Shown here in pieces: positions 2,732-50,981 of a DNA stretch of 64,000 bases. The notes under the pieces are model-generated. The model had not been told where the DNA came from. It ran no database searches and worked only from the letters and a program-made list of their open reading frames with translations. The position numbers and the translations under genes were made by a program. The stretch comes from Candidatus Zambryskibacteria bacterium CG10_big_fil_rev_8_21_14_0_10_42_12 (GTDB lineage: Bacteria > Patescibacteriota > Minisyncoccia > Phycocordibacterales > 1-14-0-10-42-12). The number at the start of each line of letters is the position of its first letter. The first letter of the stretch is position 1. The DNA lies in contig PCXL01000011.1 of assembly GCA_002787695.1 (NCBI GenBank), positions 61,155-125,154 of the forward strand. The letters run 5' to 3'.

Positions 2732-2770
2732 ATGCGGAGAGGGAGGGAATTTCTCCCTCGACTTAAAACT
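2732..2770 (-). repeat. Partial duplicate of the tRNA-Ser 3' end (T-stem plus acceptor 3' strand, T-loop altered)
   Basis: Plus-strand ATGCGGAGAGGGAGGGA at 2732-2748 is identical to 2912-2928 at the tRNA-Ser 3' end. The six-base T-loop is then different (AATTTC against TTCGAA), followed by the conserved CCCTCG. On the minus strand this gives GAGGG-AGAAATT-CCCTC-CCTCTCC-GCA preceded by a 14-bp-stem hairpin. Confidence 0.5.
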
Positions 2771-2865
2771 TTTTCGTCAAAAAGTTTTAGTCTGGGCACC
2801 GGCTCGCGTACAGGCACTACTGTGCCTGACTTCGTACGCTCCGCCGTTCGAATCCCACCTCATCC

Positions 2866-2898
2866 GTAAAACAAAAGTCGCCCGATGCTACGCATCGG
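2866..2898 (-). terminator. Rho-independent terminator 3' of tRNA-Ser
   Basis: Minus strand CCGATGCGTAGCATCGG (7-bp stem) followed by GCGACTTTTGTTTTA. Confidence 0.5.
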
Positions 2899-2914: not shown

Positions 2915-3001
2915 CGGAGAGGGAGGGATTCGAACCCTCGGTACGGTTTCCCGTACACCGCGTTTCGAGTGCGGCACATTCGACCACTCTGTCACCTCTC
3001 C
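2915..3001 (-). tRNA. tRNA-Ser (anticodon CGA), type II with long variable arm
   Basis: Minus strand: GGAGAGGTGACAGAGTGGTCGAATGTGCCGCACTCGAAACGCGGTGTACGGGAAACCGTACCGAGGGTTCGAATCCCTCCCTCTCCG. It has anticodon loop CTCGAAA, variable-arm hairpin GTACGG-GAAA-CCGTAC, and T-arm GAGGG/CCCTC. Confidence 0.8.
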
Positions 3002-3070: not shown

Positions 3071-3142
3071 GGCCCTATCGTCTAACGGTTAGGACATCGG
3101 CTTTTCAAGCCGGTAATCGGGGTTCGATTCCCCGTAGGGTCA
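3071..3142 (+). tRNA. tRNA-Glu (anticodon TTC)
   Basis: GGCCCTATCGTCTAACGGTTAGGACATCGGCTTTTCAAGCCGGTAATCGGGGTTCGATTCCCCGTAGGGTCA. It has anticodon loop TTTTCAA and T-loop TTCGATT. Confidence 0.9.
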
Positions 3143-3200
3143 CATGAAAAATGAAGAGGCTCCCGCAAGGGAGCTTTTTCATGTGACCCTACGGGCAGAA
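3143..3200. terminator. Compound hairpin terminator after tRNA-Glu; its outer stem is an inverted copy of the tRNA 3' end
   Basis: GGGTCACATGAAAAA-TGAAGAG-GCTCCC-GCAA-GGGAGC-TTTTTCATGTGACCC. The inner 6-bp stem plus T-run is flanked by a 15-bp outer inverted repeat. Confidence 0.6.
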
Positions 3201-3330
3201 AGGGGTCGGGGAAACTGGGTGTTTCCCCGTGGAGGAAGGCAGTGAGTCCTCGAACGTTGGAAAACCGTGGGTTTCCAAGGTCTCGTAAGGGTCAATGAAA
3301 AATTATCTGTGACCGAAAGTGTATTCACGT

Positions 3331-3348
3331 TTCCCCGTAGGGTCACAT
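3331..3348 (+). repeat. 18-nt perfect direct repeat of the tRNA-Glu 3' end (TTCCCCGTAGGGTCACAT)
   Basis: Identical to 3128-3145. The two copies bracket a 185-bp hairpin-rich segment at 3146-3330. Confidence 0.8.
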
Positions 3349-3391: not shown

Positions 3392-4222
3392 ATGAAAATA
3401 TATCGCTATGTTATAGATGGGCTTGTGATACTCCTGGCACTCTTTGTTTTTGGTCCACATTTGTATTATCTCTTGCCGTATGACTACGTAGACACAACTC
3501 TTCCGGACGATGTTGCCGATTATAATATTGCGATGTATACGTACCTGGAAAGTTTACCTCAAGATTTCCAGACATTACTCGCAGAGCCAACTGGTCTCAC
3601 TGGTACGCAGCGCTTTCGCACACAGGAAAATCGAAGCTTATTATCGGCAGAAGAAGTGTATGAACAGAGCAAGGACAGTGTGGTGATTATCGAGACGATG
3701 GATATGTATGGAGACCCATATAGTGGCGGCGGTGTTGTGCTGTCATCTGATGGGCTGATTGTCACGAGTTATCATCAATTGCAGGATGCAGAAAAAGTTG
3801 CAGTTTCACTTTATGATGGCAGCATTGTCAAAGTCACCGATGTGGTTGCATACGACGAAGCGCTCGATATTGCATTTATAAAGATCGATAGTGTCGATCT
3901 GCAGCCGATGCCGATAGGAGACAGTGCGCTACTTTCGATCGGTGAGCGAGTCTACTCCATCGGGCATCCTGAAGGATTTCATCACTCGTTTGCAGAGGGT
4001 GTGGTCAGTGGTATCCGTGACTATTCGTCTAGAGGTGAAGGGATACAGATCCAGATGACGAATCCGATTTCAGCAGGGAATAGTGGTGGCGCGTTGCTCA
4101 ATACCTATGGCGAGCTTGTGGGTATTCCATCGTGGTCTCTTGAATACGAAGACAATATCGTCTCTATCCAAAACCTCAATTTCTCCATCCCGATCAGGGA
4201 GGCGCTCGGAATTTTAGAATAA
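3392..4222 (+). CDS. Trypsin-like serine protease (S1C/HtrA-like protease domain, no PDZ), N-terminal membrane anchor
   Basis: Catalytic triad context: TSYHQL (His), DIAFIKI (Asp), GNSGGAL (Ser). 276 aa. Confidence 0.85.
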   Translation: MKIYRYVIDGLVILLALFVFGPHLYYLLPYDYVDTTLPDDVADYNIAMYTYLESLPQDFQTLLAEPTGLTGTQRFRTQENRSLLSAEEVYEQSKDSVVIIETMDMYGDPYSGGGVVLSSDGLIVTSYHQLQDAEKVAVSLYDGSIVKVTDVVAYDEALDIAFIKIDSVDLQPMPIGDSALLSIGERVYSIGHPEGFHHSFAEGVVSGIRDYSSRGEGIQIQMTNPISAGNSGGALLNTYGELVGIPSWSLEYEDNIVSIQNLNFSIPIREALGILE

Positions 4223-4348: not shown

Positions 4349-5671
4349 ATGAATACCAATCAACATCAAAAAAATTATGAGGTGAAACTACCCAGAATAA
4401 TGACGATCGTTTTAAGCATTGCTTCTTATTATAGAAAAACATATTTTAATACTAATGACTTAGCTATATTAGGAAACAAATATAAGCAGGATATAATACG
4501 CACCAGGAAAGATAAGGAGCACTATGCTTTTGCGAATGACACGAATTTCGGCGGAATTAGAGGTAATCTCGCTACTTTGTTGACTTGGAAGGGGGTTATT
4601 AAAAAAGATAATAGATTAGTTAATGCGTATTCTGTTGGCAGAAATGAACAAATAGTTAATGCTGTTGCTAGTGGAAAAATTATGCTTGATCTGACAAACG
4701 ACAAAGCTCATACACAGAATGAGAATCTTTTAAAATTATTGAAGGCTGAGATTTACTTAAGGTCAGTCAGGGAAGGTCAGGCACATATAAAAACATTTAT
4801 AAAGAACAATAACCATATTGGTTTTGGGAGAGATCTTGAGTTTCCAAAAACTTCTGTAGTAAAGACCAGTAAAGGTGTATGTTTTTTGAGGGCAATTGTT
4901 AATAATTTTGTAGATAGTAAAAATGAAGTTCTTAGTTATAGAATAGTCGATTTATGGTCTTCTAAAAAAATTTTAAAAGCTAATATTCATGTCTTATTTG
5001 TTGTTCCTAGAGGTAGTGACTATTGGTGTTCTATCTATGCTTTGTCTTTGGAGGAACTGTGGATCAATAAACCTGCAATTATAAATATAAACTTACTAAA
5101 CAAAAAATGTTTTGATGACATTGGAAAAGAGTATGAATTAAGAAAATTAGATTATGCGATAAATAATTTTACGAAAAGAGATGCAAATATAAATTTGCGT
5201 ATAGGGTATGATCCAAGAGAATTTTTAATTAGATATGTTATTGATGAAACAAAAAATAAGAGAATAAGGGAAAGTGAATTTAGTTTGTTTACCAAGAATT
5301 TCTTGAATTGGAATCCGAGAATAAAAATTAATAATGTGGAGGTGTGTAACATTATTGAATCAAGTTCTGGTGGTGTTGATCTGACACTCCAGTTTGTTAA
5401 TGGATCTGAGGCAAAGGTTGAGCTTGAGCATAATTGGAAAAATTATATTGATCATGGTCATCATACTAGTAACGCATGGTCAAAATGTTGGTTGTATGCT
5501 GATGAGCAGTGGGATTTCGATAATATAAAAAATATTTTTCAAACACATTTTAAAAAGCACGGAGACCGTGTTCCAACAACATTTCTAACTAAAATAGATG
5601 GTAAACAAAAGATATTTAGAGTTGATTGGCATACTCTTGATGTTTCGGAAATCGATATTACAAATTATTGA
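4349..5671 (+). CDS. Putative restriction endonuclease of the adjacent R-M system (no recognisable family; C-terminal D...EAK PD-(D/E)XK-like motif)
   Basis: A 440-aa ORF in a strongly AT-rich block of roughly 30% GC. It is convergent with, and ends 6 bp inside, a two-methyltransferase operon. The C-terminal GGVDLTLQFVNGSEAKVELEH resembles a PD-(D/E)XK core. The call is by genomic context. Confidence 0.4.
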   Translation: MNTNQHQKNYEVKLPRIMTIVLSIASYYRKTYFNTNDLAILGNKYKQDIIRTRKDKEHYAFANDTNFGGIRGNLATLLTWKGVIKKDNRLVNAYSVGRNEQIVNAVASGKIMLDLTNDKAHTQNENLLKLLKAEIYLRSVREGQAHIKTFIKNNNHIGFGRDLEFPKTSVVKTSKGVCFLRAIVNNFVDSKNEVLSYRIVDLWSSKKILKANIHVLFVVPRGSDYWCSIYALSLEELWINKPAIININLLNKKCFDDIGKEYELRKLDYAINNFTKRDANINLRIGYDPREFLIRYVIDETKNKRIRESEFSLFTKNFLNWNPRIKINNVEVCNIIESSSGGVDLTLQFVNGSEAKVELEHNWKNYIDHGHHTSNAWSKCWLYADEQWDFDNIKNIFQTHFKKHGDRVPTTFLTKIDGKQKIFRVDWHTLDVSEIDITNY

Positions 5672-6414
5672 TTTGTGATTTTCTTTATGTTTTTCAATTC
5701 TTTTAGTCTATTGATCATAATTGCGTAGTATTCACTATCTTTTTCTATACTTATACTATTTCTCTCTAGGTCATTTGCAACTTTTGTTATTGTTCCACTA
5801 CCAGCAAAACAGTCTAAAATCAGATCGTTTTTATTGGTGAAAATTTTAATTAGAAATTCAATAACTTTCTCAGGTTTTTGTGTAGGGTGTTTTGTTCTTT
5901 CTTTTCCCATACATATCGGTGTTTCTATAAAATTATGCATCTCTCTTTGGTTGCTAAAGTTGAAAGTGTAGCTGATTTTTTTATTATCGAAACCGTTCGT
6001 TGCCCATACAATTGCCTCATTGGAAGACAAAAAACCATTTTTTCTAATTTGTGGTGCCGGATTTGTTTTATGCCAAATTATTGTTGCATGATGTGAAAAA
6101 CCTAACGATTCGTAGATCCGCTTAATATCACTTATATATTCTAACTTACAGAATAAAACTAAATTACCATTTTCCTTTAAAACTTTTTTAATCTCACTTA
6201 CCCACTTTCTGGTAAAAACCAAGAATTCATCATCTTTAAAATAGTCCCATTCTCCAAAATCAGAAGAAAGAGCTTTTCTACCTTTCAATAATTTCGTATT
6301 TTTATTGGCAGTATTGTAGGGAGGATCCACAATAACGGCATCAACTTTTCTTTTGATTTTACCTAGGGAGTTAAAAACATCTCCAAGGATTAGTGTGTGT
6401 TTGTTCTTTTTCAT
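5665..6414 (-). CDS. Site-specific DNA methyltransferase (beta-class N6A/N4C, DPPY motif before FxGxG)
   Basis: VIVDPPYN (motif IV), HPTQKP, DCFAGSGTT (motif I) at the C-terminus. Its start codon overlaps the stop of the upstream methyltransferase (TAATG), indicating translational coupling. Confidence 0.85.
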   Translation of the reverse strand: MKKNKHTLILGDVFNSLGKIKRKVDAVIVDPPYNTANKNTKLLKGRKALSSDFGEWDYFKDDEFLVFTRKWVSEIKKVLKENGNLVLFCKLEYISDIKRIYESLGFSHHATIIWHKTNPAPQIRKNGFLSSNEAIVWATNGFDNKKISYTFNFSNQREMHNFIETPICMGKERTKHPTQKPEKVIEFLIKIFTNKNDLILDCFAGSGTITKVANDLERNSISIEKDSEYYAIMINRLKELKNIKKITNQ

Positions 6415-7343
6415 TAGGTTTTATTTTTTATTCTATCAATCGACATCTTGTAGAACGCGTTGTCTATTTCGCATCCAGAGTAAAACCTGTTCATTCTTTT
6501 GGCTACCACAGCAGTGGTACCAGATCCGAGAAAAGGGTCGAAAACAATGTCACCGCTGTTTGTTGTTGATTTAATAATTCTTTCTAGTAACCACTCAGGT
6601 TTCTGTGTTGGGTGTATCTTCTTTCCTCCAAAAGTTTTACCTTTTGGCCAAATAGATCTCATTTGCTTGCCATCATTGTCTTTTTTCATTAAATCATAAT
6701 TGAAAATATTCCCCTTTCCTTTTCTGGCCCAAATAAAATTTTCGTGATCTGCTACGAATCTAGTACAAGACAAATTGGGTGTCGCATCTGTTTTATGCCA
6801 CAAGATTTCATTTAATAATTCAAAGCCAGTTTTTTCTAATAAATAACCGGTCGTATAAATACTGTGATAAGTTCCTGCCACCCATATTGCTCCATTTTTT
6901 TTCAAAATACGGAATGCCTCGTCTATCCATTTTTTCGTAAATAGTTCATAATTATCGATTATGTCCCAAAGACCTTTATTAGTATATAGGTCTTTGCCAC
7001 CTGATTTTGTAAATTTAATTTTAAAATTGCTTTTACTGAGATTATAAGGGGGGTCTGCAAAAATGAGGTCTATAGACTCGTCTTCTATTGAGCTCATTAT
7101 CTTTATGCAGTCATCGTTAAAAATCTTATTCTTGAGCCCGTCTTTTGTTATTTTATCTCTCGCCTCTTTTTTAGGTTTTTTAGAGAGGGTAAGTAGATAT
7201 GCTAATGAATCTTTTTCAATTCTTCTGGCACCTCCAATTTTAATAGAAGGAATTATATTTTTAGATATGTATCTTTTTATAGTTATTTCAGACACATTTA
7301 AAAAATCAGAAGCTTCTTTTATTGTGTAAAAATTTGGCTGCAT
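6414..7343 (-). CDS. Site-specific DNA methyltransferase (beta-class) with N-terminal HTH domain
   Basis: N-terminal MQPNFYTIKEASDFLNVSEITIKRYI (HTH). IFADPPYN, HPTQKP, DPFLGSGTT. Confidence 0.85.
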   Translation of the reverse strand: MQPNFYTIKEASDFLNVSEITIKRYISKNIIPSIKIGGARRIEKDSLAYLLTLSKKPKKEARDKITKDGLKNKIFNDDCIKIMSSIEDESIDLIFADPPYNLSKSNFKIKFTKSGGKDLYTNKGLWDIIDNYELFTKKWIDEAFRILKKNGAIWVAGTYHSIYTTGYLLEKTGFELLNEILWHKTDATPNLSCTRFVADHENFIWARKGKGNIFNYDLMKKDNDGKQMRSIWPKGKTFGGKKIHPTQKPEWLLERIIKSTTNSGDIVFDPFLGSGTTAVVAKRMNRFYSGCEIDNAFYKMSIDRIKNKT

Positions 7344-7581
7344 TGTTTTTATCTAAGCTCGTAAAAGTATCAATTGGTATCAATTTTAGCAGTAATGGGT
7401 ATTTTGGTATGGGGATAACGTTTGTAGGTTAAAACCAAGTATAAATTTAGGGGAGGTTTTAGCAGTGGTGTAAAAATATTGGTGGTACATATCTTTGGCA
7501 TGAACAAATTCGCGATAGGAGGTCTTTATATTGTGATCCTACGAAGCATTTAACGGAGAATTGTGATATAACGCTTATATT

Positions 7582-31838: not shown

Positions 31839-32189
31839 ATGAAAAAAGCAGTTATTACTTCTTTGATGCTTGGCGCAATGCCGTTTATTGCAAGTGCCCA
31901 GCTTGAAAACATTGAAGACATTGTTGTATCAATTGGTGATATTATCGACCTTTTGGTACCTATTGTGTTTGCACTCGCTATCCTCTATTTCTTCTGGGGA
32001 CTTGCACAATTTATCTTGGCTTCAGGAGACGAAACCGCACGTGCAGAAGGCCGCCAGAAGATGATCTGGGGTATTGTAGCAATTGCAGTAATGGCATCTA
32101 TCTGGGGACTTGTGTTCTTCTTGCAAGATGCTGTTGGTGTAAGTCGAGTAGACGCACCGTCTATCGATGTTATTCCGACTGTCAACTAA
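31839..32189 (+). CDS. Small 2-TM pilin-like protein, paralog 5
   Basis: Signal peptide, then ARAEGRQKMIWGIVAIAVMASIWGLV, almost the same motif as paralog 4. Confidence 0.55.
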   Translation: MKKAVITSLMLGAMPFIASAQLENIEDIVVSIGDIIDLLVPIVFALAILYFFWGLAQFILASGDETARAEGRQKMIWGIVAIAVMASIWGLVFFLQDAVGVSRVDAPSIDVIPTVN

Positions 32190-32209
32190 CGAGAGTGCTA
32201 TAAGATTCC

Positions 32210-32485
32210 ATGGATAGCTTCGGAACATTGCTTGGTAAGATAAACGAGTTCATTATCAATCCGATTATCTACGTCCTCTTTGCGGTTGCATTTATCTTCT
32301 TCTTTATCGGACTTATACAGGTTGTCAAAGGATCAAAAGAAGGTGGAGATGATTTTGCAAAAGGGAAGAGAAACATGCTCTATGGACTTATCGGATTTGT
32401 CGTGATGTTTGGAGTTTACGGCATTATCAACCTGCTCTTAGGAACATTTGGAATCGATACACCGGAATATCTGCAAGGGTTGTAG
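32210..32485 (+). CDS. Small 2-TM membrane protein related to the pilin-like array (no signal peptide)
   Basis: FAKGKRNMLYGLIGFVVMFGVYGI motif analogous to the paralogs. Confidence 0.45.
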   Translation: MDSFGTLLGKINEFIINPIIYVLFAVAFIFFFIGLIQVVKGSKEGGDDFAKGKRNMLYGLIGFVVMFGVYGIINLLLGTFGIDTPEYLQGL

Positions 32486-32507
32486 AAAAATAAGATTCAG
32501 ATAACGA

Positions 32508-32552
32508 AAGACCGCCTGACGGATCCCTTGCGGGACCGTCAGGCGGTTTTGG
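32508..32552. terminator. Bidirectional compound hairpin terminator
   Basis: ACCGCCTGACGG...CCGTCAGGCGGT plus TTTT, between the pilin array and the convergent minus-strand gene. Confidence 0.6.
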
Positions 32553-32566
32553 TTGTGGAGGCGACA

Positions 32567-34873
32567 TCAGTCTACCTCCGGAAACAGAACCCATAGTCGA
32601 TTGACATATGGCTCTGCATTTTCGGTCATGATCCGGATGGTCCTGAAATTACTTCGCAGGACAGTTCCGGACTGACCGACTCTAAACGGTTCTCCGCCGT
32701 CTAGAGAGATGAGAAGTCGATCATCAACCATCATCAGTCGCTCGAGATTTGTGTATTTCGAGCGCGCTATGATGCTGTCGACTTGCGCCTTACCGTTCTC
32801 CATACCGAGCCGTTCGAGCTCGGAGGAGACATAGGAGCGGAGCTCTTCGACAACATCTATCGTTTCTCCCCAGACGCCATTGCCTGGGGCGGCAAACATG
32901 ATTCCTCTTTTTCTTTGGAATCCCCCTGCTCGAGCTTTTGCCTCGAGCTTGTCGATTGTTCGTTGCCAAGGAGAAAAACTCCTCCCGGCAGCAACATAGA
33001 CGGCATGTGCCCAGCGTACGTGCTCCTCGATGTCATGCTCATACGGGTCAATGCCCATATTGCGAGCAATTCCACCATGGAACCCGGCGTTGACTTGGCA
33101 TAAGCCTATGTCTTCATTGTCCGAACCGCGCAAGATCGTGCCGTCGTCATTGTAGTGACGTAAGCCCGACTCTTCGCGACAAATGGCGAGCATCCACCGG
33201 ACTGCTTCCGGACCTTCGCTGTCGAAGACTTGTTGGATAATCGCCTCTGCTTGAGCGGCAGGTATGAGATTGTGCTGCTCAAGGGCTTGTTCAGTTTGTT
33301 TCGGAGCATCGTCAGATCCTCCAAACCAGTCCAACCAACCTCCTTTATTCTCAGAGCGCTCGAGCTGCTGCTTGTACTGCAGCCAGCGGATACCTTCCTC
33401 CGAGGTTAACGGTTTTCCTGGAACTCCAATTCTCGAAGAACCAGGATTGTTGGCAACGCACGCATAGACGTGCACCATCCACCAATCTCCGTCTTCACCT
33501 GTAGGAGACGTATCTCCCTCAGGGCGACAGTACAGGGCAACCCCCTCTTTTGTGAAGAGGATATTGTCCTCAAAATCCTGCCTCATCTGCTTTGCCGTAT
33601 GGATTACTCCAGGAAGCGAAGTGATAAAGGAGGGAGTGAGAATGGTGAGTACCGTTCCCACAGTGGCTAGTGATGCCAGTGTGGTAAACCATGAACCTAC
33701 AACGCGAGAACCGGTTATCCGGTGGTACACTCCGTTAAAGGTCAGAATAGCGATACCGACCGCCATTATGGTGTGAAGTGTCGAGTGGTCTTTGAGCGGT
33801 AAGTGTGCAAGCATTCCGCTCATGAGACCAACGACCATCAGAAATCCGAGAACGGCCCAATACTTCTGCCGTGCGGGTTTGAAACCCATGAGGCGAAGCA
33901 TGAGTGCTCCTATTCCGAAGAGGAGCACGAGGGGGATTGCATACATAAGCAATTGCCCCAAAATAGATTCCGCTCCACTACCACTCACAACGAGTCCTAG
34001 TGCCAATTTATACCCAAAGTATACGATAAGCGCAGGACCCACGATGAAGATGATGATGGAGAAAGCGAAAACGGTGCATGCCAAGTACCACAGTGCTCGG
34101 GCAACTCTGTCTGCAGGTGCTTCTTCCTGCATCACAAACGGCACTGGGCCGTTTGGCGTGAACACGGGAACCATTCTCCCAGAACCGGCCATTCGTCCGA
34201 GTGACGCTAATCCGGGTCGTCGAGCGATTAAGCTCTCTGCGAACCGGGTGAATTTTTGCCAGCGAGTGGCTTGGTAGAGGAACTCGAGCTGGGACGTAAC
34301 CCACGCATCGTATTCTTGTACCGTTTCACCCTCTTTCATCTTCCGAAAAATACGCCGGAAGATGTTTACGAAAAGCTTTACCGGATCTCCAGCAGAAATC
34401 CAGGTAATGGTTCCATCGGGATTGCGTGTTGCCACGTCAAACCCATTTTTGGCCGCACGCCACGCCTGGCCGATCGCGTTCTCGCGATCGTCGGATGGGT
34501 TGCGGTGGAAATAGTCTTGGGCACGTGTCCAGCCGCTCTTGAGTTGATCGGCCAGGATCATCTTGGCTTCCTTGGCGTATTCGCCGCGGAAGGTTTTGAT
34601 GACGATATTGGCGATGACTTCGGCGGCTTTGTCAGGGTCGCCCCCGAAGCCGCCAACCACCTTTTTCCCCACGCTGATGATGATGTCGTACAGGACTTCA
34701 TCTTTCACCGCAGAGAACATGCCTTTTGCTGCGGATTTGATATTCCGCAGTATGTTTCGTAACATTTCTTCTCTCCTTGGCGCGAGATGCGCCGATACTC
34801 TAGATTGTGATAGACCTAAGTCCTCATATATTATAACAAAAAATGGTGAATTGTCAATGTAATTATTTGACAA
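32567..34873 (-). CDS. Polytopic membrane protein with C-terminal SLT-type lytic transglycosylase domain (VirB1-like activity on a VirB6-like multi-TM body?)
   Basis: Central block of five or more TM helices. C-terminal AICREESGLRHYN...DIGLCQVN...Y gives the SLT catalytic Glu-Ser, GLxQ and Tyr motifs. GC about 52-55%. Confidence 0.65.
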   Translation of the reverse strand: MSNNYIDNSPFFVIIYEDLGLSQSRVSAHLAPRREEMLRNILRNIKSAAKGMFSAVKDEVLYDIIISVGKKVVGGFGGDPDKAAEVIANIVIKTFRGEYAKEAKMILADQLKSGWTRAQDYFHRNPSDDRENAIGQAWRAAKNGFDVATRNPDGTITWISAGDPVKLFVNIFRRIFRKMKEGETVQEYDAWVTSQLEFLYQATRWQKFTRFAESLIARRPGLASLGRMAGSGRMVPVFTPNGPVPFVMQEEAPADRVARALWYLACTVFAFSIIIFIVGPALIVYFGYKLALGLVVSGSGAESILGQLLMYAIPLVLLFGIGALMLRLMGFKPARQKYWAVLGFLMVVGLMSGMLAHLPLKDHSTLHTIMAVGIAILTFNGVYHRITGSRVVGSWFTTLASLATVGTVLTILTPSFITSLPGVIHTAKQMRQDFEDNILFTKEGVALYCRPEGDTSPTGEDGDWWMVHVYACVANNPGSSRIGVPGKPLTSEEGIRWLQYKQQLERSENKGGWLDWFGGSDDAPKQTEQALEQHNLIPAAQAEAIIQQVFDSEGPEAVRWMLAICREESGLRHYNDDGTILRGSDNEDIGLCQVNAGFHGGIARNMGIDPYEHDIEEHVRWAHAVYVAAGRSFSPWQRTIDKLEAKARAGGFQRKRGIMFAAPGNGVWGETIDVVEELRSYVSSELERLGMENGKAQVDSIIARSKYTNLERLMMVDDRLLISLDGGEPFRVGQSGTVLRSNFRTIRIMTENAEPYVNRLWVLFPEVD

Positions 34874-34970
34874 ATAACTTAAATTATGATAATAAAGTGC
34901 TAGAACGGCTCTCTAAAGCCATTCGACCTTTTACATAGAGAATGTGGGTGAGGCCCACAGGGAGAAAATG

Positions 34971-36341
34971 ATGAGGAAACTTATCGTATTGGCGAGCGTG
35001 CTCGCCATGATGTGCACGATGCTGGCTTCGGGCCAGACGTTGTTCGAGGGTGTCATTCAGACGAACGACAACCGCGAGGAGGTCGTCAAAATCACGGAGC
35101 AACCAGCGGTGCAGCCGCAGAAGCAAATCCAGGCTGTTGCGCCACAGGCGCAGCAGATCGAAGAGACTCAGGTGGCGGCACCTGTCGATCAGTCGGCGGT
35201 GACTCCTGAACCGACTGCGCCGGCTCAGGATGTCGCGGTTCAGACAGGCATACCTGACAACCCGACAAGCGAGTGGTTGGTCGAGTACATGCTCGGTGGT
35301 CTCTACTGGATAGTCAGAGCCGCATCAGATCTGACATTCTGGCAGATTTTGCTCATTATCCTGGCTGTATTGGCGGTAGCGGGGTTAGGGTATGGATGGT
35401 CGCAATTTCCGCACCCAGTAGCAGATCTGAAATCAAGAATGCGATCGGTATGGCGCAAGTTGCGGGTAGTGTTCGGTGATCATAAGTATCACCGTACCGA
35501 AACTTCCGGCGGACCGTATCGTAAACTGACGCTACTCGAGGATGTATTACGCCAAGGTTCAAAGTCAGGACCTCAACTGGTCTTGTTCTTGGGACTTTAC
35601 GCTGGTGTAGCGTCGGCGGCAGTGCTGACCAACGAGCCTGTGCTTCACCCACAAAACATCGAGCCGGTTGCCGTTGTTGAGAACACGACGTCGACTGTCA
35701 CGATCAGTTGCACGGCGAACATGTCGTGCAACAAGGTGAAGTCTGCGCGACTGGGTACGTCTGACCACGTGTCTGTAACTGCAACATCCAAAGACAAACT
35801 GGTGTTGCAGGTGAAAACTGGTCCTCGTTCGCACATTCAGGAGGACCGTATCGTTCTCCACTACGGTGATGGGGTGGAAAGGCGAATCGCCGGATTCTTC
35901 ACGCTGCCACGTCAGGCAGCTGAGACGATCGAATTCATGATGCGGTTGCATCCTGGTGAGCAGGAGGCTGGAGGTGCACACAGTGCAATCACTGCGGTCC
36001 TCCAAGCTGAGATCGACCGGATCGACCAGCACAAAGTTGACCCGCTCCGTGAGGAGGTAGAGAAACTCAAAGCTCGTGTCCAAGAAAACGAGCAACGAGT
36101 CAGGACAAATACCGGTCTCATGGCCGAGGTGCGCGACGAAGTCGTTGCTCTTCGTGACAGGGTCGGCGAGACAGAAGAGCGACTCGGCAAGCTCGAGCAC
36201 ACCGAGCGCTCACAGGTACTCTACGCCTGTGCCGGTTTCGGCACACGGCAAGAAAATGGCGCCGCACTTGCTGCGGTTGCCAAACGAGAAGGGAAGACAC
36301 CGAAGCAAGTCTGCGAAGACATGCAAACGGATCCTTTCTGA
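34971..36341 (+). CDS. Hypothetical exported/membrane protein with Gln/Pro-rich linker and C-terminal coiled coil (GC-rich)
   Basis: Signal-like N-terminus MMRKLIVLASVLAMMCTML, an internal TM segment ILLIILAVLAVAGLGYGW, and a C-terminal heptad-rich EEVEKLKARVQENEQRV... About 58% GC. Confidence 0.5.
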   Translation: MRKLIVLASVLAMMCTMLASGQTLFEGVIQTNDNREEVVKITEQPAVQPQKQIQAVAPQAQQIEETQVAAPVDQSAVTPEPTAPAQDVAVQTGIPDNPTSEWLVEYMLGGLYWIVRAASDLTFWQILLIILAVLAVAGLGYGWSQFPHPVADLKSRMRSVWRKLRVVFGDHKYHRTETSGGPYRKLTLLEDVLRQGSKSGPQLVLFLGLYAGVASAAVLTNEPVLHPQNIEPVAVVENTTSTVTISCTANMSCNKVKSARLGTSDHVSVTATSKDKLVLQVKTGPRSHIQEDRIVLHYGDGVERRIAGFFTLPRQAAETIEFMMRLHPGEQEAGGAHSAITAVLQAEIDRIDQHKVDPLREEVEKLKARVQENEQRVRTNTGLMAEVRDEVVALRDRVGETEERLGKLEHTERSQVLYACAGFGTRQENGAALAAVAKREGKTPKQVCEDMQTDPF

Positions 36342-36496
36342 TCTGATCAGTTTCCAAATCCAGACCGAGTAGTACCACGTTGTACTGCTCGGCCTGTTTT
36401 AATTTCGAAAAATGTTTAAAATTAGCCATAAAAATGCTCATGGTATTATTAATAAGGAACACAGCTCTGCAATATATATAGGTATAGGAGGCTCAC

Positions 36497-37156
36497 ATGC
36501 GGAAAGGGGTAGTACTGGTTATCTTGTTGTCTCTTGTCGCAACCATTGTTTTTGGATGGTTGTGGTGGAAGACGACCAAGGTCACGCAGGAAGTCGACAG
36601 AGAGATACGTAGGTTGAGAGAGGATATACAACAATCGGAACAGGAATCACGTATAGAAGCTTTTGTCTCGTCGCAGACACAGGCTTTGACGGAAGCACAC
36701 ACGACCGATATGCGTGGACTGCGACAAGAGTTGGCTCAGAATCGACAAGAACTAGAGCGGATAGTGAAGGAGGTGGAAACTCAGAAGGCACTGATTGCCG
36801 AGCGCACTACTCGACAGGAAGTCCAAAAGGAAATAGACGCAAGAGCGAGTATCTTGGCAGATCGTCTCAAGCAGCTCGCTATACGTGTGCTCGATCTCAG
36901 TCGTCGTGTGCAAGAAAATCTGCAACTTGCTCTTGAAGCCAAAGGTGCTTTGGCGGAATTGCAAGACCATGTGCGACGTATAAAACAGGTGACCGATGAC
37001 AACACGCATGAGATACAGGAATTAAATCAAATGCATACATACCGGATTCGGACTGCCTGTGTGCTTGGATACAGCAATGATCCGGATCTTGTGCTGCGTG
37101 CGGAGCGTGTTCGCCTGTCACCTGCGGAGTTTTGTGAACAATTTTTGTCGCAATAG
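36497..37156 (+). CDS. Hypothetical membrane-anchored coiled-coil protein (GC-rich)
   Basis: N-terminal TM VVLVILLSLVATIVFGWLWW followed by about 150 aa of coiled-coil-like sequence. Confidence 0.5.
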   Translation: MRKGVVLVILLSLVATIVFGWLWWKTTKVTQEVDREIRRLREDIQQSEQESRIEAFVSSQTQALTEAHTTDMRGLRQELAQNRQELERIVKEVETQKALIAERTTRQEVQKEIDARASILADRLKQLAIRVLDLSRRVQENLQLALEAKGALAELQDHVRRIKQVTDDNTHEIQELNQMHTYRIRTACVLGYSNDPDLVLRAERVRLSPAEFCEQFLSQ

Positions 37157-37339
37157 CGACTTTCGTCGAGGAGAAGCGCTCCTCGACGAGTTTTTAATGT
37201 TTGTCAAAAAAGCAAAAATAAGCATACAATAGGGACTGCTTGTCCGGGTGATGGAATCCCAAGTAGCAAAGCGAAGCTTACTACGGGACGGGTTGGTAAC
37301 ATAGGAAAAATTACTGAGTGTTGTTTAATAATTTGGAAT

Positions 37340-37421
37340 GCCCGGGTGGCGGAACTGGTATACGCGCACGACTTAAAATCGTGTTCCGAAAGGGGTGCGG
37401 GTTCGATTCCCGCCCCGGGCA
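37340..37421 (+). tRNA. tRNA-Leu (anticodon TAA), type II
   Basis: GCCCGGGTGGCGGAACTGGTATACGCGCACGACTTAAAATCGTGTTCCGAAAGGGGTGCGGGTTCGATTCCCGCCCCGGGCA. Confidence 0.85.
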
Positions 37422-37610
37422 CAAGAATAAAAGAACTGGGCACGAATGTGTCTCGTGATTTTTATTCTCGCCTCGGGCGGGAATCGAAAGCCGGAGCGCG
37501 CGAAGCCGACCGTAGGTCGTGTGCGAGGCGGGGTCGCGACCTCCGTCGTGAAGATTTACCCAGCACTTATAACATAAGTGCTGGGTTTATCGAAACAGGA
37601 GAGTTGTGAC

Positions 37611-37628
37611 CGATTCCCGCCCCGGGCA
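37611..37628 (+). repeat. 18-nt direct repeat of the tRNA-Leu(TAA) 3' end (CGATTCCCGCCCCGGGCA)
   Basis: Identical to 37404-37421. The 190-bp segment between them contains hairpins and a partial inverted copy of the T-arm (GCGGGAATCGAA). Confidence 0.8.
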
Positions 37629-37677
37629 TCATATAAAAAGGAAATGCCCTCGCGGATGCGAGGGGCTTTATGGGGGA

Positions 37678-37851
37678 CTATGCAGCGTTGGCTGTCTCTC
37701 GGGCCAAAATAAGTTTTGGCCCGACTGGCTTGAGTTCACCACGTTTACCTATTTCAACATGGGTGAAATTTGCGAGCGTGATTAGGGCTCCTGGATTCAT
37801 GGCGACCAGGACGTCAATGACATCGTTAACAGGATAGACGCCAGGTTTCAT
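37678..37851 (-). CDS. Small hypothetical protein (57 aa) with its own hairpin terminator
   Basis: MKPGVYPVNDVIDVLVAMNPGALITLANFTHVEIGKRGELKPVGPKLILARETANAA. The stop is followed on the minus strand by GCCCCTCGCATCCGCGAGGGC plus a T-run. Confidence 0.3.
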   Translation of the reverse strand: MKPGVYPVNDVIDVLVAMNPGALITLANFTHVEIGKRGELKPVGPKLILARETANAA

Positions 37852-37988
37852 TTATATTGTTACTCCATACGAAAGATCGGGCCGAGAGTATTTTTATCAT
37901 ATCCTCGTATATATGCAACATAACGCATTCATGCATGCTTCATATGTAGACTGGGGGCGTCCTTTTTGTTATATTTCTTTTGTTTTAA

Positions 37989-38061
37989 CCGCCCATAGCT
38001 CAGTTGGTAGAGCAGTCGCCTCTTAAGCGAACGGTCGTAGGTTCGAATCCTACTGGGCGGA
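37989..38061 (+). tRNA. tRNA-Lys (anticodon CTT)
   Basis: CCGCCCATAGCTCAGTTGGTAGAGCAGTCGCCTCTTAAGCGAACGGTCGTAGGTTCGAATCCTACTGGGCGGA. It has anticodon loop CTCTTAA and an unusual C1:G72. Confidence 0.75.
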
Positions 38062-38076
38062 TGTAATTTAACTCTC

Positions 38077-38784
38077 GTGCTAATGTTTTTTATATTAATA
38101 TATGGTATACGCTATATGCCTTACAATATTAAATACTACAAAACATATCAGTGGAGTAAAAAGTTGGCATATATAATTGGACTTATTGCAACAGATGGAA
38201 GTCTGTCTGTTGACGAGCGTCATATTGATTTTACATCTAAAGATTTAGAGCTTATCAAAATTTTTAAAGATTGTCTGAAACTTTCAAATAAAATAGGTAT
38301 TAAGAAGAGCGGCACAAACAGAGTTTGTTTTTGTATACAATTTGGTAACAAGAATTTTTACAACTTTCTAAATTCTATAGGGATTTATAAGGCTAAATCC
38401 AAAACTATAAAAAGGATTGATATACCTAATAAATATTTTCCACATTTTTTACGTGGCTGTTTGGATGGCGATGGTAATATTGATTTATACAAACATGCAC
38501 AAAGTCAATATATGCAAATTAGATTTAGATTTGCATCTGCGAGTAAACCATTTCTAGAATGGATATTACAGGTATTAAAAATAAAATATAGTATTGAAGG
38601 AGGTTGGATTTATAGTCAAAAAAATAAATCAACCCATGTTTTAGTCTTTGGTAAGACAGACACTTTGAAAATTGGAAAAATCATGTATCATGACCATGCG
38701 AACTTATGCTTACAAAGGAAGTTTGCAAAATATAAACAATGGGCAAGTGGCGGAATTGGTATACGCGCTAGTCTTAGGAACTAG
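38077..38784 (+). CDS. LAGLIDADG homing endonuclease (double-motif), AT-rich; 3' end overlaps tRNA-Leu(TAG) by about 44 nt
   Basis: Two LAGLIDADG motifs, LAYIIGLIATDGSLS and FLRGCLDGDGNID. About 28% GC. It lies between tRNA-Lys and tRNA-Leu(TAG). Confidence 0.8.
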   Translation: MLMFFILIYGIRYMPYNIKYYKTYQWSKKLAYIIGLIATDGSLSVDERHIDFTSKDLELIKIFKDCLKLSNKIGIKKSGTNRVCFCIQFGNKNFYNFLNSIGIYKAKSKTIKRIDIPNKYFPHFLRGCLDGDGNIDLYKHAQSQYMQIRFRFASASKPFLEWILQVLKIKYSIEGGWIYSQKNKSTHVLVFGKTDTLKIGKIMYHDHANLCLQRKFAKYKQWASGGIGIRASLRN

Positions 38785-38822
38785 TGCCGCAAGGCTTGGG
38801 AGTTCGAGTCTCCCCTTGCCCA
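38741..38822 (+). tRNA. tRNA-Leu (anticodon TAG), type II
   Basis: GGGCAAGTGGCGGAATTGGTATACGCGCTAGTCTTAGGAACTAGTGCCGCAAGGCTTGGGAGTTCGAGTCTCCCCTTGCCCA. Confidence 0.85.
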
Positions 38823-38950
38823 CAGTGAGTTTTCGAACGAGGACAAGGACTAGCTTGTGATAACAAGCGTTAGTCTGACTCGAAGCCTGTTTGAGATATT
38901 TTGTGAGCTGGCGAAACAAAATATCCAAACACGGGTACTGAACCTGTAAG

Positions 38951-38974
38951 GTTCGAGTCTCCCCTTGCCCACAG
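38951..38974 (+). repeat. 24-nt direct repeat of the tRNA-Leu(TAG) 3' end (GTTCGAGTCTCCCCTTGCCCACAG)
   Basis: Identical to 38802-38825. The intervening 125 bp contains the hairpin GATATTTTGT...ACAAAATATC and a partial anticodon/T-arm-like stretch. Confidence 0.8.
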
Positions 38975-38984
38975 AAATATTAAT

Positions 38985-39059
38985 TGGAGGCGTAGAGGGG
39001 AATCGAACCCCTGCATAACGGTTTTGCAGACCGTCGTGTTACCACTTCACCACTACGCC
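38985..39059 (-). tRNA. tRNA-Cys (anticodon GCA), CCA encoded
   Basis: Minus strand GGCGTAGTGGTGAAGTGGTAACACGACGGTCTGCAAAACCGTTATGCAGGGGTTCGATTCCCCTCTACGCCTCCA. Confidence 0.85.
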
Positions 39060-46624: not shown

Positions 46625-47431
46625 ATGGCTAGACGCTGGACAAAAGAAGAAGAGAAGTATTATCGAGATGAATTAGTAAATTTATATTACTCCAAAAACT
46701 TGAGCATGCATGAGGTAGCAAAGGTTTTGAATATAAAATCAGCTACGGTTTTTGATAGATTGCGCCGGTTACGTATTAACACGGTGCCTCATCTTAAGAA
46801 GGGTTATCGAAACGTTCGCAAAGATATTCGTATCCCAGATTGTCATGATGCAAATTTGGCAGAATTTTTTGGCATCATGTTGGGCGACGGCCACCTTTCT
46901 CATTTTCAAGTAACCGTAACATTGGGAACAAAAGAATATGTGTATGTGCAATATGTAAAAAAGTTAATGGAAAAAATTTTTAAAGTGCCAGTTAAAATCT
47001 CAGAAAGGAAGTTTAAGCGAACGGATAATAAGCATTATACTGTTTATTTTGGTTCAACCGTAACGAGTCAGTGGTTAAAAACTGAGGGTTTAGTAGAAAA
47101 TAAAGTGAAAAATCAAGTCGATGTTCCAAAGTGGATATTTGAAAATAATATATTCATGGAAAGATTTTTAAGAGGGTTTTTTGATACTGATGGATCGGTT
47201 TATAAATTGAGGCACGGCATACAAATTGGACTAACAAACCGTTCACTACCGATGCTGAAATCTTTACAATTGATGCTAAAAACACTAGAATACAGGACGT
47301 CTGAAATCAGTGGTTTTCGCTTGTATATAACAAAGAAGCAGGATCTAAAAAGGTTTTTTAAAGAGATTAAACCGAAAAATCCAAAACATACTGCCAGATT
47401 TCAGGAATATCTCAATGCGTCAGTCGCATAG
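46625..47431 (+). CDS. LAGLIDADG homing endonuclease (double-motif) with N-terminal HTH; 3' end overlaps tRNA-Tyr by 15 nt
   Basis: Two LAGLIDADG motifs, LAEFFGIMLGDGHLS and FLRGFFDTDGSVY. N-terminal LSMHEVAKVLNIKSATVFDRLRRL is HTH-like. AT-rich. The stop codon TAG lies inside the tRNA-Tyr acceptor/D region. Confidence 0.8.
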   Translation: MARRWTKEEEKYYRDELVNLYYSKNLSMHEVAKVLNIKSATVFDRLRRLRINTVPHLKKGYRNVRKDIRIPDCHDANLAEFFGIMLGDGHLSHFQVTVTLGTKEYVYVQYVKKLMEKIFKVPVKISERKFKRTDNKHYTVYFGSTVTSQWLKTEGLVENKVKNQVDVPKWIFENNIFMERFLRGFFDTDGSVYKLRHGIQIGLTNRSLPMLKSLQLMLKTLEYRTSEISGFRLYITKKQDLKRFFKEIKPKNPKHTARFQEYLNASVA

Positions 47432-47500
47432 TGGCAATTGCACGAGACTGTAAATCTCGCGGCCTTTTGGCCTACGGGGGTTCGAGTCCCTCCTGGCGCA
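47417..47500 (+). tRNA. tRNA-Tyr (anticodon GTA), type II
   Basis: GCGTCAGTCGCATAGTGGCAATTGCACGAGACTGTAAATCTCGCGGCCTTTTGGCCTACGGGGGTTCGAGTCCCTCCTGGCGCA. Confidence 0.8.
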
Positions 47501-50821: not shown

Positions 50822-50867
50822 GTATTGTATGTGCCACGCGAGGGAATTGAACCCTCATGGATCACTC
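50822..50867 (-). pseudogene. 3'-half fragment of a tRNA-Leu-like gene (variable arm, T-arm, acceptor 3' strand only)
   Basis: Minus strand GATCGTGTGGAGTGATCCATGAGGGTTCAATTCCCTCGCGTGGCA is about 75% identical to the 3' half of the adjacent tRNA-Leu(CAA). No 5' half is present. Confidence 0.6.
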
Positions 50868-50899
50868 CACACGATCTGCTTCAGGCTTTGAAAACACGG

Positions 50900-50981
50900 T
50901 GCTGGGAGGGAGAATCGAACTCCCATGGATTGCTCCACACGATTTTGAGTCGTGCGCGTCTACCAATTCCGCCACCCCAGC
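50900..50981 (-). tRNA. tRNA-Leu (anticodon CAA), type II
   Basis: Minus strand GCTGGGGTGGCGGAATTGGTAGACGCGCACGACTCAAAATCGTGTGGAGCAATCCATGGGAGTTCGATTCTCCCTCCCAGCA. Confidence 0.85.

Follow-up and report, generated by a model that had tools for sequence, protein, structure and literature searches.

A 149-nt structured insert behind tRNA-Leu(TAG) of a Candidatus Zambryskibacteria contig and related non-coding units at tRNA 3' ends of Paceibacterota

A 24-nt direct repeat at the 3' end of a tRNA-Leu(TAG) gene was analysed in a 64,000-nt stretch of Candidatus Zambryskibacteria DNA (contig PCXL01000011.1, positions 61,155 to 125,154; hereafter the window, with coordinates counted from its first letter). 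The two copies of the repeat flank a 149-nt insert, which is probably a small non-coding structured element of a superfamily that inserts specifically at tRNA 3' ends in Paceibacterota (candidate phyla radiation). About 27 such units were found in roughly 1 Mb of sequence, 100–255 nt in length, non-coding, directly 3' of a tRNA and on the tRNA strand. They are self-contained structured units which stand almost only behind tRNAs, are polymorphic between genomes, can be stacked and decay once resident. From sequence comparison they are best read as non-autonomous, tRNA-end-specific insertion elements, the mobility of which we infer. A published description of such units was not found in the literature, and they apparently form an undescribed family of folded elements.

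The insert behind tRNA-Leu(TAG), its fold and its family

The 24-mer GTTCGAGTCTCCCCTTGCCCACAG occurs exactly twice in the window, at 38802–38825 and 38951–38974, both on the + strand, as the initial annotation had reported. In 100 dinucleotide shuffles zero matches were obtained with 3 mismatches allowed, the chance expectation being none. The insert consists of a 125-nt body followed by the 24-nt copy 2; drawing it as 38802–38950 is equally valid. Copy 2 ends 13 nt before the opposite-strand tRNA-Cys(GCA), the neighbour named in that annotation.

Syntenic empty sites were present in three related loci (L107, L108 and L110; loci of related genomes and metagenome contigs are designated by L numbers). 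Their gene order is that of the window, with tRNA-Leu(TAA), tRNA-Lys, a LAGLIDADG homing-endonuclease gene over the 5' end of tRNA-Leu(TAG), the convergent tRNA-Cys, rbfA and infB, and tRNA-Leu(TAG) and tRNA-Cys lie ~13 nt apart, the window having 149 bases more. A covariance model of the family gave no match on L107. The earlier suggestion of a hotspot for mobile DNA is thereby supported, the direct repeat marking where a unit was inserted at the 3' end of the tRNA; LAGLIDADG genes, which adjoin a tRNA 5' end at this locus and at two further tRNAs, add to the support.

The unit itself belongs to core type C and was matched by the covariance model (R1) at 38840–38974 with 69.2 bits (E 4e-16). 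Its parts are listed in Table 1. Arm a forms 7 of 8 pairs with the acceptor 3' strand of copy 2, with one A.C, and both the DNA fold and the duplex fold pair arm a with copy 2. The hairpin H1, placed precisely between the two arms, corresponds to family helix 1, in which 9 of 9 pairs show compensatory changes. A segment of the H2 apical loop, GTGAGCTGGCGA, recurs in the L021 element, and the 3' strand of H3 extends into copy 2. At the position of H0 other members carry a terminator-like hairpin; the GAGT-hairpin motif was also seen in L021, L103 and the tRNA-Glu unit of the window. The initial annotation had named, as a finding that would refute it, copy 2 being part of another RNA. In one sense this applies, since the helix that closes this conserved structured element has copy 2 as its 3' strand.

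Read on the tRNA strand, the order within a unit is H0, the complement of the acceptor 3' strand, often H1, the complement of the T-stem 3' strand and T-loop, the core, and the copy of the tRNA 3' end. Two forms of H0 occur: a short hairpin, preceded by a GAGT motif and capped by a GNRA-like loop, and a full terminator-like one. Three core types (A, B and C) were distinguished. The copy runs from T54–C56 to the discriminator plus 1–3 nt, its left edge in type A being invariably between T55 and C56, and the junctions read GTGAC/CGAWT or CTGTAAG/GWTC. In intact units the repeats measure 17–24 nt.

Nine type C units could be aligned, with invariant GTAA and GTAC motifs. RNAalifold predicted 32 pairs, of which 26 are compensatory (changed on both sides with pairing kept). 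Paired cells amounted to 86.8%, against 63.0% in shuffles (0 of 500 reached the observed value), and the covariation score was 0.67, against 0.23 in shuffles and at most 0.16 in slid registers. The covariance model built from this alignment gave 15 matches at E<=1 in 982 kb, 13 of them directly behind a tRNA and on its strand. Of the other two, one (L043, at 11.8 kb) has a decayed 3' remnant of tRNA-like sequence next to it, and the second (L058) falls short of significance (E 0.16). Weaker matches were type A cores with the same 5' architecture, from which it follows that the core types form one superfamily. The type A scaffold is also conserved, and its junction stems covary (e.g. GTC/GAC vs GCT/AGC). 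Rfam, run on the whole window at the gathering threshold and on three tRNA regions at E<=10, returned real tRNAs and noise only. A promoter scan found none convincing for the element, and terminators between tRNA and element were confirmed.

The ends of a unit fit its own tRNA. Gapped duplex energies of the 5' region were best with the unit's own 3' copy (−22.8 kcal/mol self vs −16.8 kcal/mol non-self, p=0.001), self pairing ranking first of 15 in 7 units and among the top three in 12. Every unit has the T-loop/T-stem complement. The acceptor complement varies: 4 of 15 units have a perfect one, several others a near-perfect or bulged version, and a few a weak one. G.U positions were inspected by eye to see whether the 5' segment might copy the 5' acceptor strand of the tRNA: ~3 cases agree with that strand and ~5 with a perfect complement of the 3' strand. 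In L103 (tRNA-Leu(TAG)) and L038 (tRNA-Tyr), the arms fit copy 2, and both depart from the sequence of the resident tRNA. The unit is therefore self-contained; it was imported there, or else the tRNA was replaced later, possibly by co-conversion with an adjacent homing-endonuclease gene. In L008 (10616–10735) the displaced 3' half of a different tRNA-Leu(TAA) allele (…GGTTCGATTCCCACCCCGGGCACCA) lies between tRNA-Leu(TAA) and a type C unit, which suggests that the tRNA gene itself was replaced.

A repeat scan and a direct test of all ten tRNAs of the window showed that four carry a unit: Leu(TAG), Leu(TAA), Ser(CGA) and Glu(TTC). At the latter three, which the initial annotation had missed, the tRNA's own 3' end recurs 180–207 nt downstream. 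The closing stem of the Glu unit is a 12-bp perfect helix (TGACCCTACGGG/CCCGTAGGGTCA), and its sole clear relative is the unit behind tRNA-Gly(CCC) in L013. It also holds an internal GTGAGTCCTCGAACG, a motif that marks the 5' end of other units, and may be a composite of two.

Beyond the window, 214 tRNAs were surveyed in ~1 Mb of related genomes and metagenome contigs for matches of at least 13/16 to the tRNA 3' end within 450 nt. IF-2 scans of metagenome and species genomes had yielded relatives of ~50% identity only; closer relatives were obtained through RbfA and LAGLIDADG look-ups. Fifteen downstream matches were counted against 2 upstream; one downstream case (L061) comes merely from a pair of adjacent tRNA-Ala genes, and both upstream matches probably have a similar origin in nearby tRNAs. 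Repeat spacings were all 100–210 nt. No kilobase-scale or island-sized version of the repeat was found among the 214 tRNAs, the sole long-range matches being paralogous Leu tRNAs. Units occur at tRNAs for Leu, Tyr, Cys, Ser, Glu, Gly and Lys, at least eight tRNA species in all.

Occupancy differs between close relatives. At tRNA-Cys, among genomes with RbfA 82–87% identical, L083 is filled by a type A unit with a perfect 19-nt copy, and L085, L086 and the window are empty; family A elements stand at this tRNA in L103, L007 and L021 as well. Where units or fragments are stacked (L021, L059, L083), the tRNA-proximal copy is perfect, those farther out being decayed or truncated. Cores 67–70% identical (85% over 74 nt) were found at tRNA-Tyr, at tRNA-Leu(TAA) and at a Leu(TAG)-like remnant, in hosts whose IF-2 proteins are only 52–56% identical. 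Within the single genome of L031, the Tyr and Leu(TAG) units resemble each other.

Behind the type A unit of L083, within 1258–1531, stands an older piece (TTCGATTCCCGCTCAGGTCTC) from the 3' end of another tRNA-Cys allele, and the spacer homologous to the L086 empty site comes after this fragment. Five independent short-read contigs of relatives (L079–L082 and L084) all end ~30–35 nt into tRNA-Cys. Such breaks are consistent with repeats or polymorphism behind that tRNA disrupting assembly. The repeats are unlikely to be an assembly artefact, because the same structure was found in independent assemblies (L001, L031/L052, L103/L105).

The block of tRNA-Leu(TAA), tRNA-Lys, the LAGLIDADG gene and tRNA-Leu(TAG), 37340–38825, is inverted relative to rbfA/tRNA-Cys when compared with L083, L085 and L086. 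Copy 2 as an inversion breakpoint was considered and rejected: L107 has the same inverted order without the element, so inversion and insert are unrelated.

Table 1 Features of the tRNA-Leu(TAG) locus and sister elements in the window
Feature	Coordinates	Strand	Basis or remark
tRNA-Leu(TAG), intact, without encoded CCA	38741..38822	+	ARAGORN; Rfam tRNA 58.9 bits
Copy 1 of direct repeat, tRNA G53 (last T-stem base) to discriminator + CAG	38802..38825	+	
149-nt insert relative to the syntenic L107 empty site	38826..38974	+	Alignment with L107
H0, short hairpin GUUUUC-GAAC-GAGGAC following a GTGAGT motif	38829..38844	+	Folds
Arm a, GGACAAGG	38841..38848	+	Complement of copy 2 acceptor 3' strand, CCTTGCCC
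H1 hairpin, precisely at the acceptor/T-stem boundary of the arms	38849..38874	+	Folds; family helix 1
Arm b, CTGACTCGAAGCC	38875..38887	+	Complement of copy 2 T-loop/T-stem 3' strand (GGTTCGAGTC); folds, helix 2
H2, long hairpin with apical loop GAGCTGGCGAA	38888..38931	+	Folds; helices 3 and 4 covary
H3 hairpin GAACCU-GUA-AGGUUC with family-invariant GTAA	38940..38954	+	Alignment A1 invariant columns; helix 5 covaries
Copy 2 of direct repeat, 3' strand of closing helix	38951..38974	+	Native A-rich spacer to tRNA-Cys comes next
tRNA-Cys(GCA), convergent, without element in this genome	38988..39059	-	
Free-standing LAGLIDADG homing-endonuclease gene	38077..38784	+	Pfam PF14528; PDB 2dch; homologues
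Sister element, core family A, behind tRNA-Leu(TAA) 37340-37421	37469..37628	+	Copy 2 at 37611-37628
Terminator hairpin between tRNA-Leu(TAA) and sister element	37424-37468		
Sister element, core family A, behind tRNA-Ser(CGA) 2915-3001	2732..2866	-	Copy 2 at 2732-2748
Sister element, core family B, behind tRNA-Glu(TTC) 3071-3142	3183..3348	+	Copy 2 at 3331-3348

Explanations for the units

For units that insert at tRNA 3' ends, the following course is proposed. The moving form would be a single-stranded, dumbbell-folded intermediate of DNA or RNA. On closure of the circle, the 5' arms and the 3' copy would pair into a stem of ~18–20 bp reproducing the duplex of the tRNA gene 3' end, capped by H0 at one side and by the core at the other. 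If the tRNA gene then recombined with this stem, or strands were transferred between the two, the product would have the order tRNA, H0, arms, core, copy and native trailer; an enzyme encoded elsewhere would join the unit just after the tRNA end, leaving the tRNA intact and producing the direct repeat. After insertion the unit would no longer be maintained and would decay. H0, where it is a full terminator, may serve the tRNA.

Candidates for such an enzyme were sought near the units. Pfam searches of 36 window open reading frames (ORFs; >=130 aa) gave no integrase, transposase, TnpB, reverse transcriptase or HUH protein, there is no ORF in the 125-nt body, and the neighbouring genes listed for related loci held no candidate enzyme. 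In viral contigs, two core motifs gave 0 and 10 matches; the 10 are attributable to chance (best model score 13 bits, E 0.1), none with an adjacent tRNA.

Several points weigh against insertion elements as the explanation. Mobility is deduced from distribution only, as neither an enzyme nor an excised form nor an autonomous relative was found, and the proposed course does not account for how the 5' segments and the 3' copy would be reset to a new tRNA. The empty-site genome L107 is distant (IF-2 45% identical), which leaves the insertion undated. The multi-helix cores, the GNRA-type loops and a GGA/GAG internal loop resemble a functional RNA more than they resemble recombination sites, and folding is slightly better on the tRNA strand in 12 of 14 units; the Leu(TAG) unit of the window folds equally well on both strands, also as DNA. 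About half of the units lie behind a strong terminator, arguing against simple co-transcription. In the Leu(TAG) units of L031 and L038 and in the Gly unit of L013, the acceptor-strand complement is either missing or weak.

The strongest competitor, though a rather improbable one, is a family of host-maintained structured non-coding RNA genes linked to tRNAs and not primarily mobile, whose closing helix repeats the 3' strand of the acceptor and T stems from the tRNA next to it. Such RNAs could be substrates of RNase P, RNase Z and CCA addition, or serve as tRNA-specific mimics or decoys. Besides the strand preference just given, this explanation draws on strong covariation in five helices, on GNRA-like loops with a tandem G.A-type internal loop, on a closing helix that stops at the discriminator plus 1–3 nt, and on tRNA-Tyr, which carries a type C unit in 5 deeply diverged genomes. 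It is opposed by uncompensated decay of the 3' copy, in distal tandem units and in several single ones (L021, L059, L031-Tyr, L007, L018), which suggests that no lasting selection acts after insertion. Also against it are the sporadic distribution per tRNA and genome, the related cores at different tRNAs in distant hosts, and the strong intrinsic terminators that precede many units and leave no space for a promoter. In addition, the T-loop is base-paired and not presented as a loop, unlike in true tRNA mimics.

Similarly tentative is a bolder proposal, in which the units are either base-pair-guided mobile elements or tRNA-specific minihelix mimics with a cellular role. In the former case they would be retargetable and non-autonomous, the two segments flanking H1 would read 15–20 nt of the tRNA 3' end, and the core would recruit a trans-acting enzyme to insert the unit immediately behind the tRNA, in genomes that are themselves reduced. 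If the units are mobile, something recognises or builds a copy of the target duplex, which would amount to a compact, sequence-programmable insertion; if they are functional RNAs, they would represent a new tRNA-linked RNA class.

Integration into tRNA genes classically leaves a direct repeat that extends from the T-loop to the 3' end of the tRNA. The repeat at tRNA-Leu(TAG) has this extent and might accordingly be what is left of an integrase-mediated island or prophage, with attL and attR kept and the rest deleted. This origin is largely refuted and very improbable: the 125-nt body is a member of a conserved covarying family and not random residue, all ~27 units measure 100–255 nt with no kilobase-sized counterpart at the surveyed tRNAs, the window holds no integrase, and related cores use eight tRNA species, unlike a single site-specific integrase.

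Still less probable is a pseudo-tRNA, i.e. a partial tandem duplication of tRNA-Leu(TAG) with a degenerate 5' part. Copy 2 is indeed identical to the tRNA 3' end, and CTGTAAG in H3 resembles an anticodon loop, but that of Tyr, not Leu. The initial annotation had likened the sequence before copy 2, ACGGGTACTGAACCTGTAAG, to an anticodon/T-arm remnant and had advised checking the 125-bp segment for a tRNA-like fold. The former proved instead to be H3 of the conserved family, with its invariant GTAA and covarying stem; as to the latter, the tRNA model (E<=10) and ARAGORN gave no signal between the two real tRNAs (38823–38987). The 5' segments complement the 3' part of the tRNA instead of repeating it, and homologues of the body stand behind Tyr, Cys and Leu(TAA) tRNAs; it is this family membership that refutes a pseudo-tRNA.

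Least probable of all is an origin as filler DNA, taken up when breaks made at the tRNA by a LAGLIDADG enzyme were repaired. The endonuclease genes adjoining tRNA-Leu(TAG), tRNA-Tyr and tRNA-Cys (L087) would suit it, but an endonuclease gene is adjacent to only one of the four window elements, tRNA-Tyr of the window and tRNA-Leu(TAG) of L107 have an endonuclease and no element, and a covarying family is not expected of filler DNA.

The tRNA 3'-end footprint is made here by gene-less units of 100–255 nt, with ends tailored to at least eight tRNA species, in very small genomes. The units break short-read assemblies at tRNA genes and create spurious 'att sites', and annotation of these genomes should model them. 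One 64-kb window holds four members of this apparently unrecognised, structurally well-supported family.

Homing-endonuclease genes and other window features

The LAGLIDADG gene upstream of the insert was correctly described in the initial annotation as overlapping the tRNA 5' end: ORF 38077–38784 covers the first 44 nt of tRNA-Leu(TAG). Its conserved part stops at the first base of the tRNA, the last 13 codons being read-through. The gene is a separate selfish element and not part of the 3' insert. A second free-standing LAGLIDADG gene of the window (46625–47431, +) ends a few bases inside the 5' end of tRNA-Tyr (47417–47500), and in L087 a third (6521–7408) likewise ends a few bases inside the 5' end of a tRNA-Cys at 7399. 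The three tRNA-abutting proteins (Leu(TAG), Tyr, Cys) share a mutual identity of only 24–32%. A homologue in L099 is placed differently, ~85 nt downstream of tRNA-Leu(TAG).

The protein of window 38077–38742 is 52% identical to that of L107 (3028–3609), a value above those for IF-2 (45%) and RbfA (40%), which suggests that the endonuclease gene moved horizontally. At least 243 homologues were counted, and those sampled all lie in an infB-rbfA/type IV secretion system (T4SS)-pilin neighbourhood. Between tRNA-Cys and rbfA, L107 also encodes an 83-aa GIY-YIG domain protein (3786–4037, −), possibly another homing-endonuclease remnant at the same tRNA cluster.

Two further tRNAs of the window are accompanied by tRNA-like pieces. 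Downstream of tRNA-Val(GAC) (1214–1285, −), an 18-nt perfect direct repeat, CCCGCCTGCCAACGCCTG (1108–1125 and 1195–1212, region 1108–1212), flanks a degenerate tRNA-Val-like piece with an anticodon-arm-like CAACATTGACGTTGTTG, for which neither ARAGORN nor Rfam gave a call. About 25 nt behind tRNA-Leu(CAA) (50900–50981, −), at ~50830–50875, a pseudo-copy resembling the 3' half of a tRNA-Leu (ATCGTGTGGAGTGATCCATGAGGGTTCAATTCCCTCGCGTGGCA) has its own compensated T-stem.

At ~32000–37200, the GC content is 50–53% vs ~42%, with genes for large membrane/coiled-coil proteins and a lysozyme-like C-terminus; T4SS-pilin/TrbC-like genes precede this block (L001 annotation), which ends at tRNA-Leu(TAA) and may be a conjugative or pilus island. 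A low-GC block (32–34%) at 5665–7343 (−) holds two adjacent N6/N4 DNA methyltransferase genes beside a DUF4268 protein and may be a restriction-modification or orphan methylase island.

Comparison with known systems

Insertion into the 3' ends of tRNA genes is well known for kilobase-sized, integrase-bearing islands. Like tyrosine-integrase islands, prophages and cis-mobilisable remnants, the units insert behind an intact tRNA with a repeat from T-loop to 3' end (24/24 nt here), stack in tandem and supply the tRNA with a terminator. Unlike these integrative elements, they measure 100–255 nt instead of kilobases, carry no integrase or ORF, use at least eight tRNA species within one family, and possess an internal complement of the repeat together with a covarying multi-helix core.

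With integron attC sites and the attP hairpin of CTX phage, the units share a duplex site, imperfect and formed by two parts of one strand, structure kept over sequence, bulged stem bases and the position of the newest array unit next to the target. They differ from attC in having no GTTRRRY/RYYYAAC core triplets, a stem that copies the target gene and a cassette without a gene; a cognate tyrosine recombinase or Xer link was not found in the window. Elements of the IS200/IS605 group and palindrome-associated transposable elements (PATEs) are likewise small (in their non-coding forms), hairpin-rich and structured strand-specifically; their guide segments beside a hairpin pair with the cleavage or target site, and the arms flanking H1 would choose a target on a similar principle. 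In the units, however, pairing extends over 15–20 nt, not 4, and a 17–24-nt direct repeat stands where IS200/IS605 elements have none, a difference by which derivation from that family was rejected; no TnpA or other transposase is encoded in the 64-kb window. The cores are unrelated in sequence to any Rfam or insertion-sequence RNA.

Casposons and CRISPR spacer integration (Cas1-type integrases) resemble the units in tRNA 3'-end insertion and in a long duplicated target (14–15 bp in casposons, the whole repeat in CRISPR); the units have no Cas1 and no fixed terminal inverted repeats, and are far smaller. Among RNA processing signals, plant mitochondrial t-elements and the mascRNA/MALAT1 3' end also contain a helix of the acceptor/T-stem 3' strand ending at the discriminator, and the closing helix of the units might be a substrate of RNase P or RNase Z. 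Unlike these tRNA-like elements, the units have their T-loop paired to a complement and a helix that copies the specific neighbouring tRNA.

Two RNA-based systems were considered and rejected. Patescibacteria carry group I introns in the anticodon loop of tRNAs at position 35/36 (PMC13011429); the insert stands at the 3' end of an intact tRNA, and Rfam, at either cut-off (gathering threshold or E<=10), gave no match to it. TIGR-Tas (PMC12045711) was considered for its split guides, and IS110 bridge RNA was compared along with TIGR-Tas tigRNA; guides of this kind come in tandem, read opposite strands and are bordered by box C/D-like motifs, with an array or recombinase gene adjacent. Both arms of the units read one contiguous stretch of a single strand, and neither an array nor an associated gene is present.

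Of the features that define miniature inverted-repeat transposable elements (MITEs), the units show small size, non-coding nature, multiple copies and target duplication. Assignment to MITEs in the strict sense was rejected, the inverted segments varying from unit to unit and matching the local tRNA. The units are best filed as a variant of tRNA-end-specific insertion elements, with a real chance that they represent a new guided element or RNA class.

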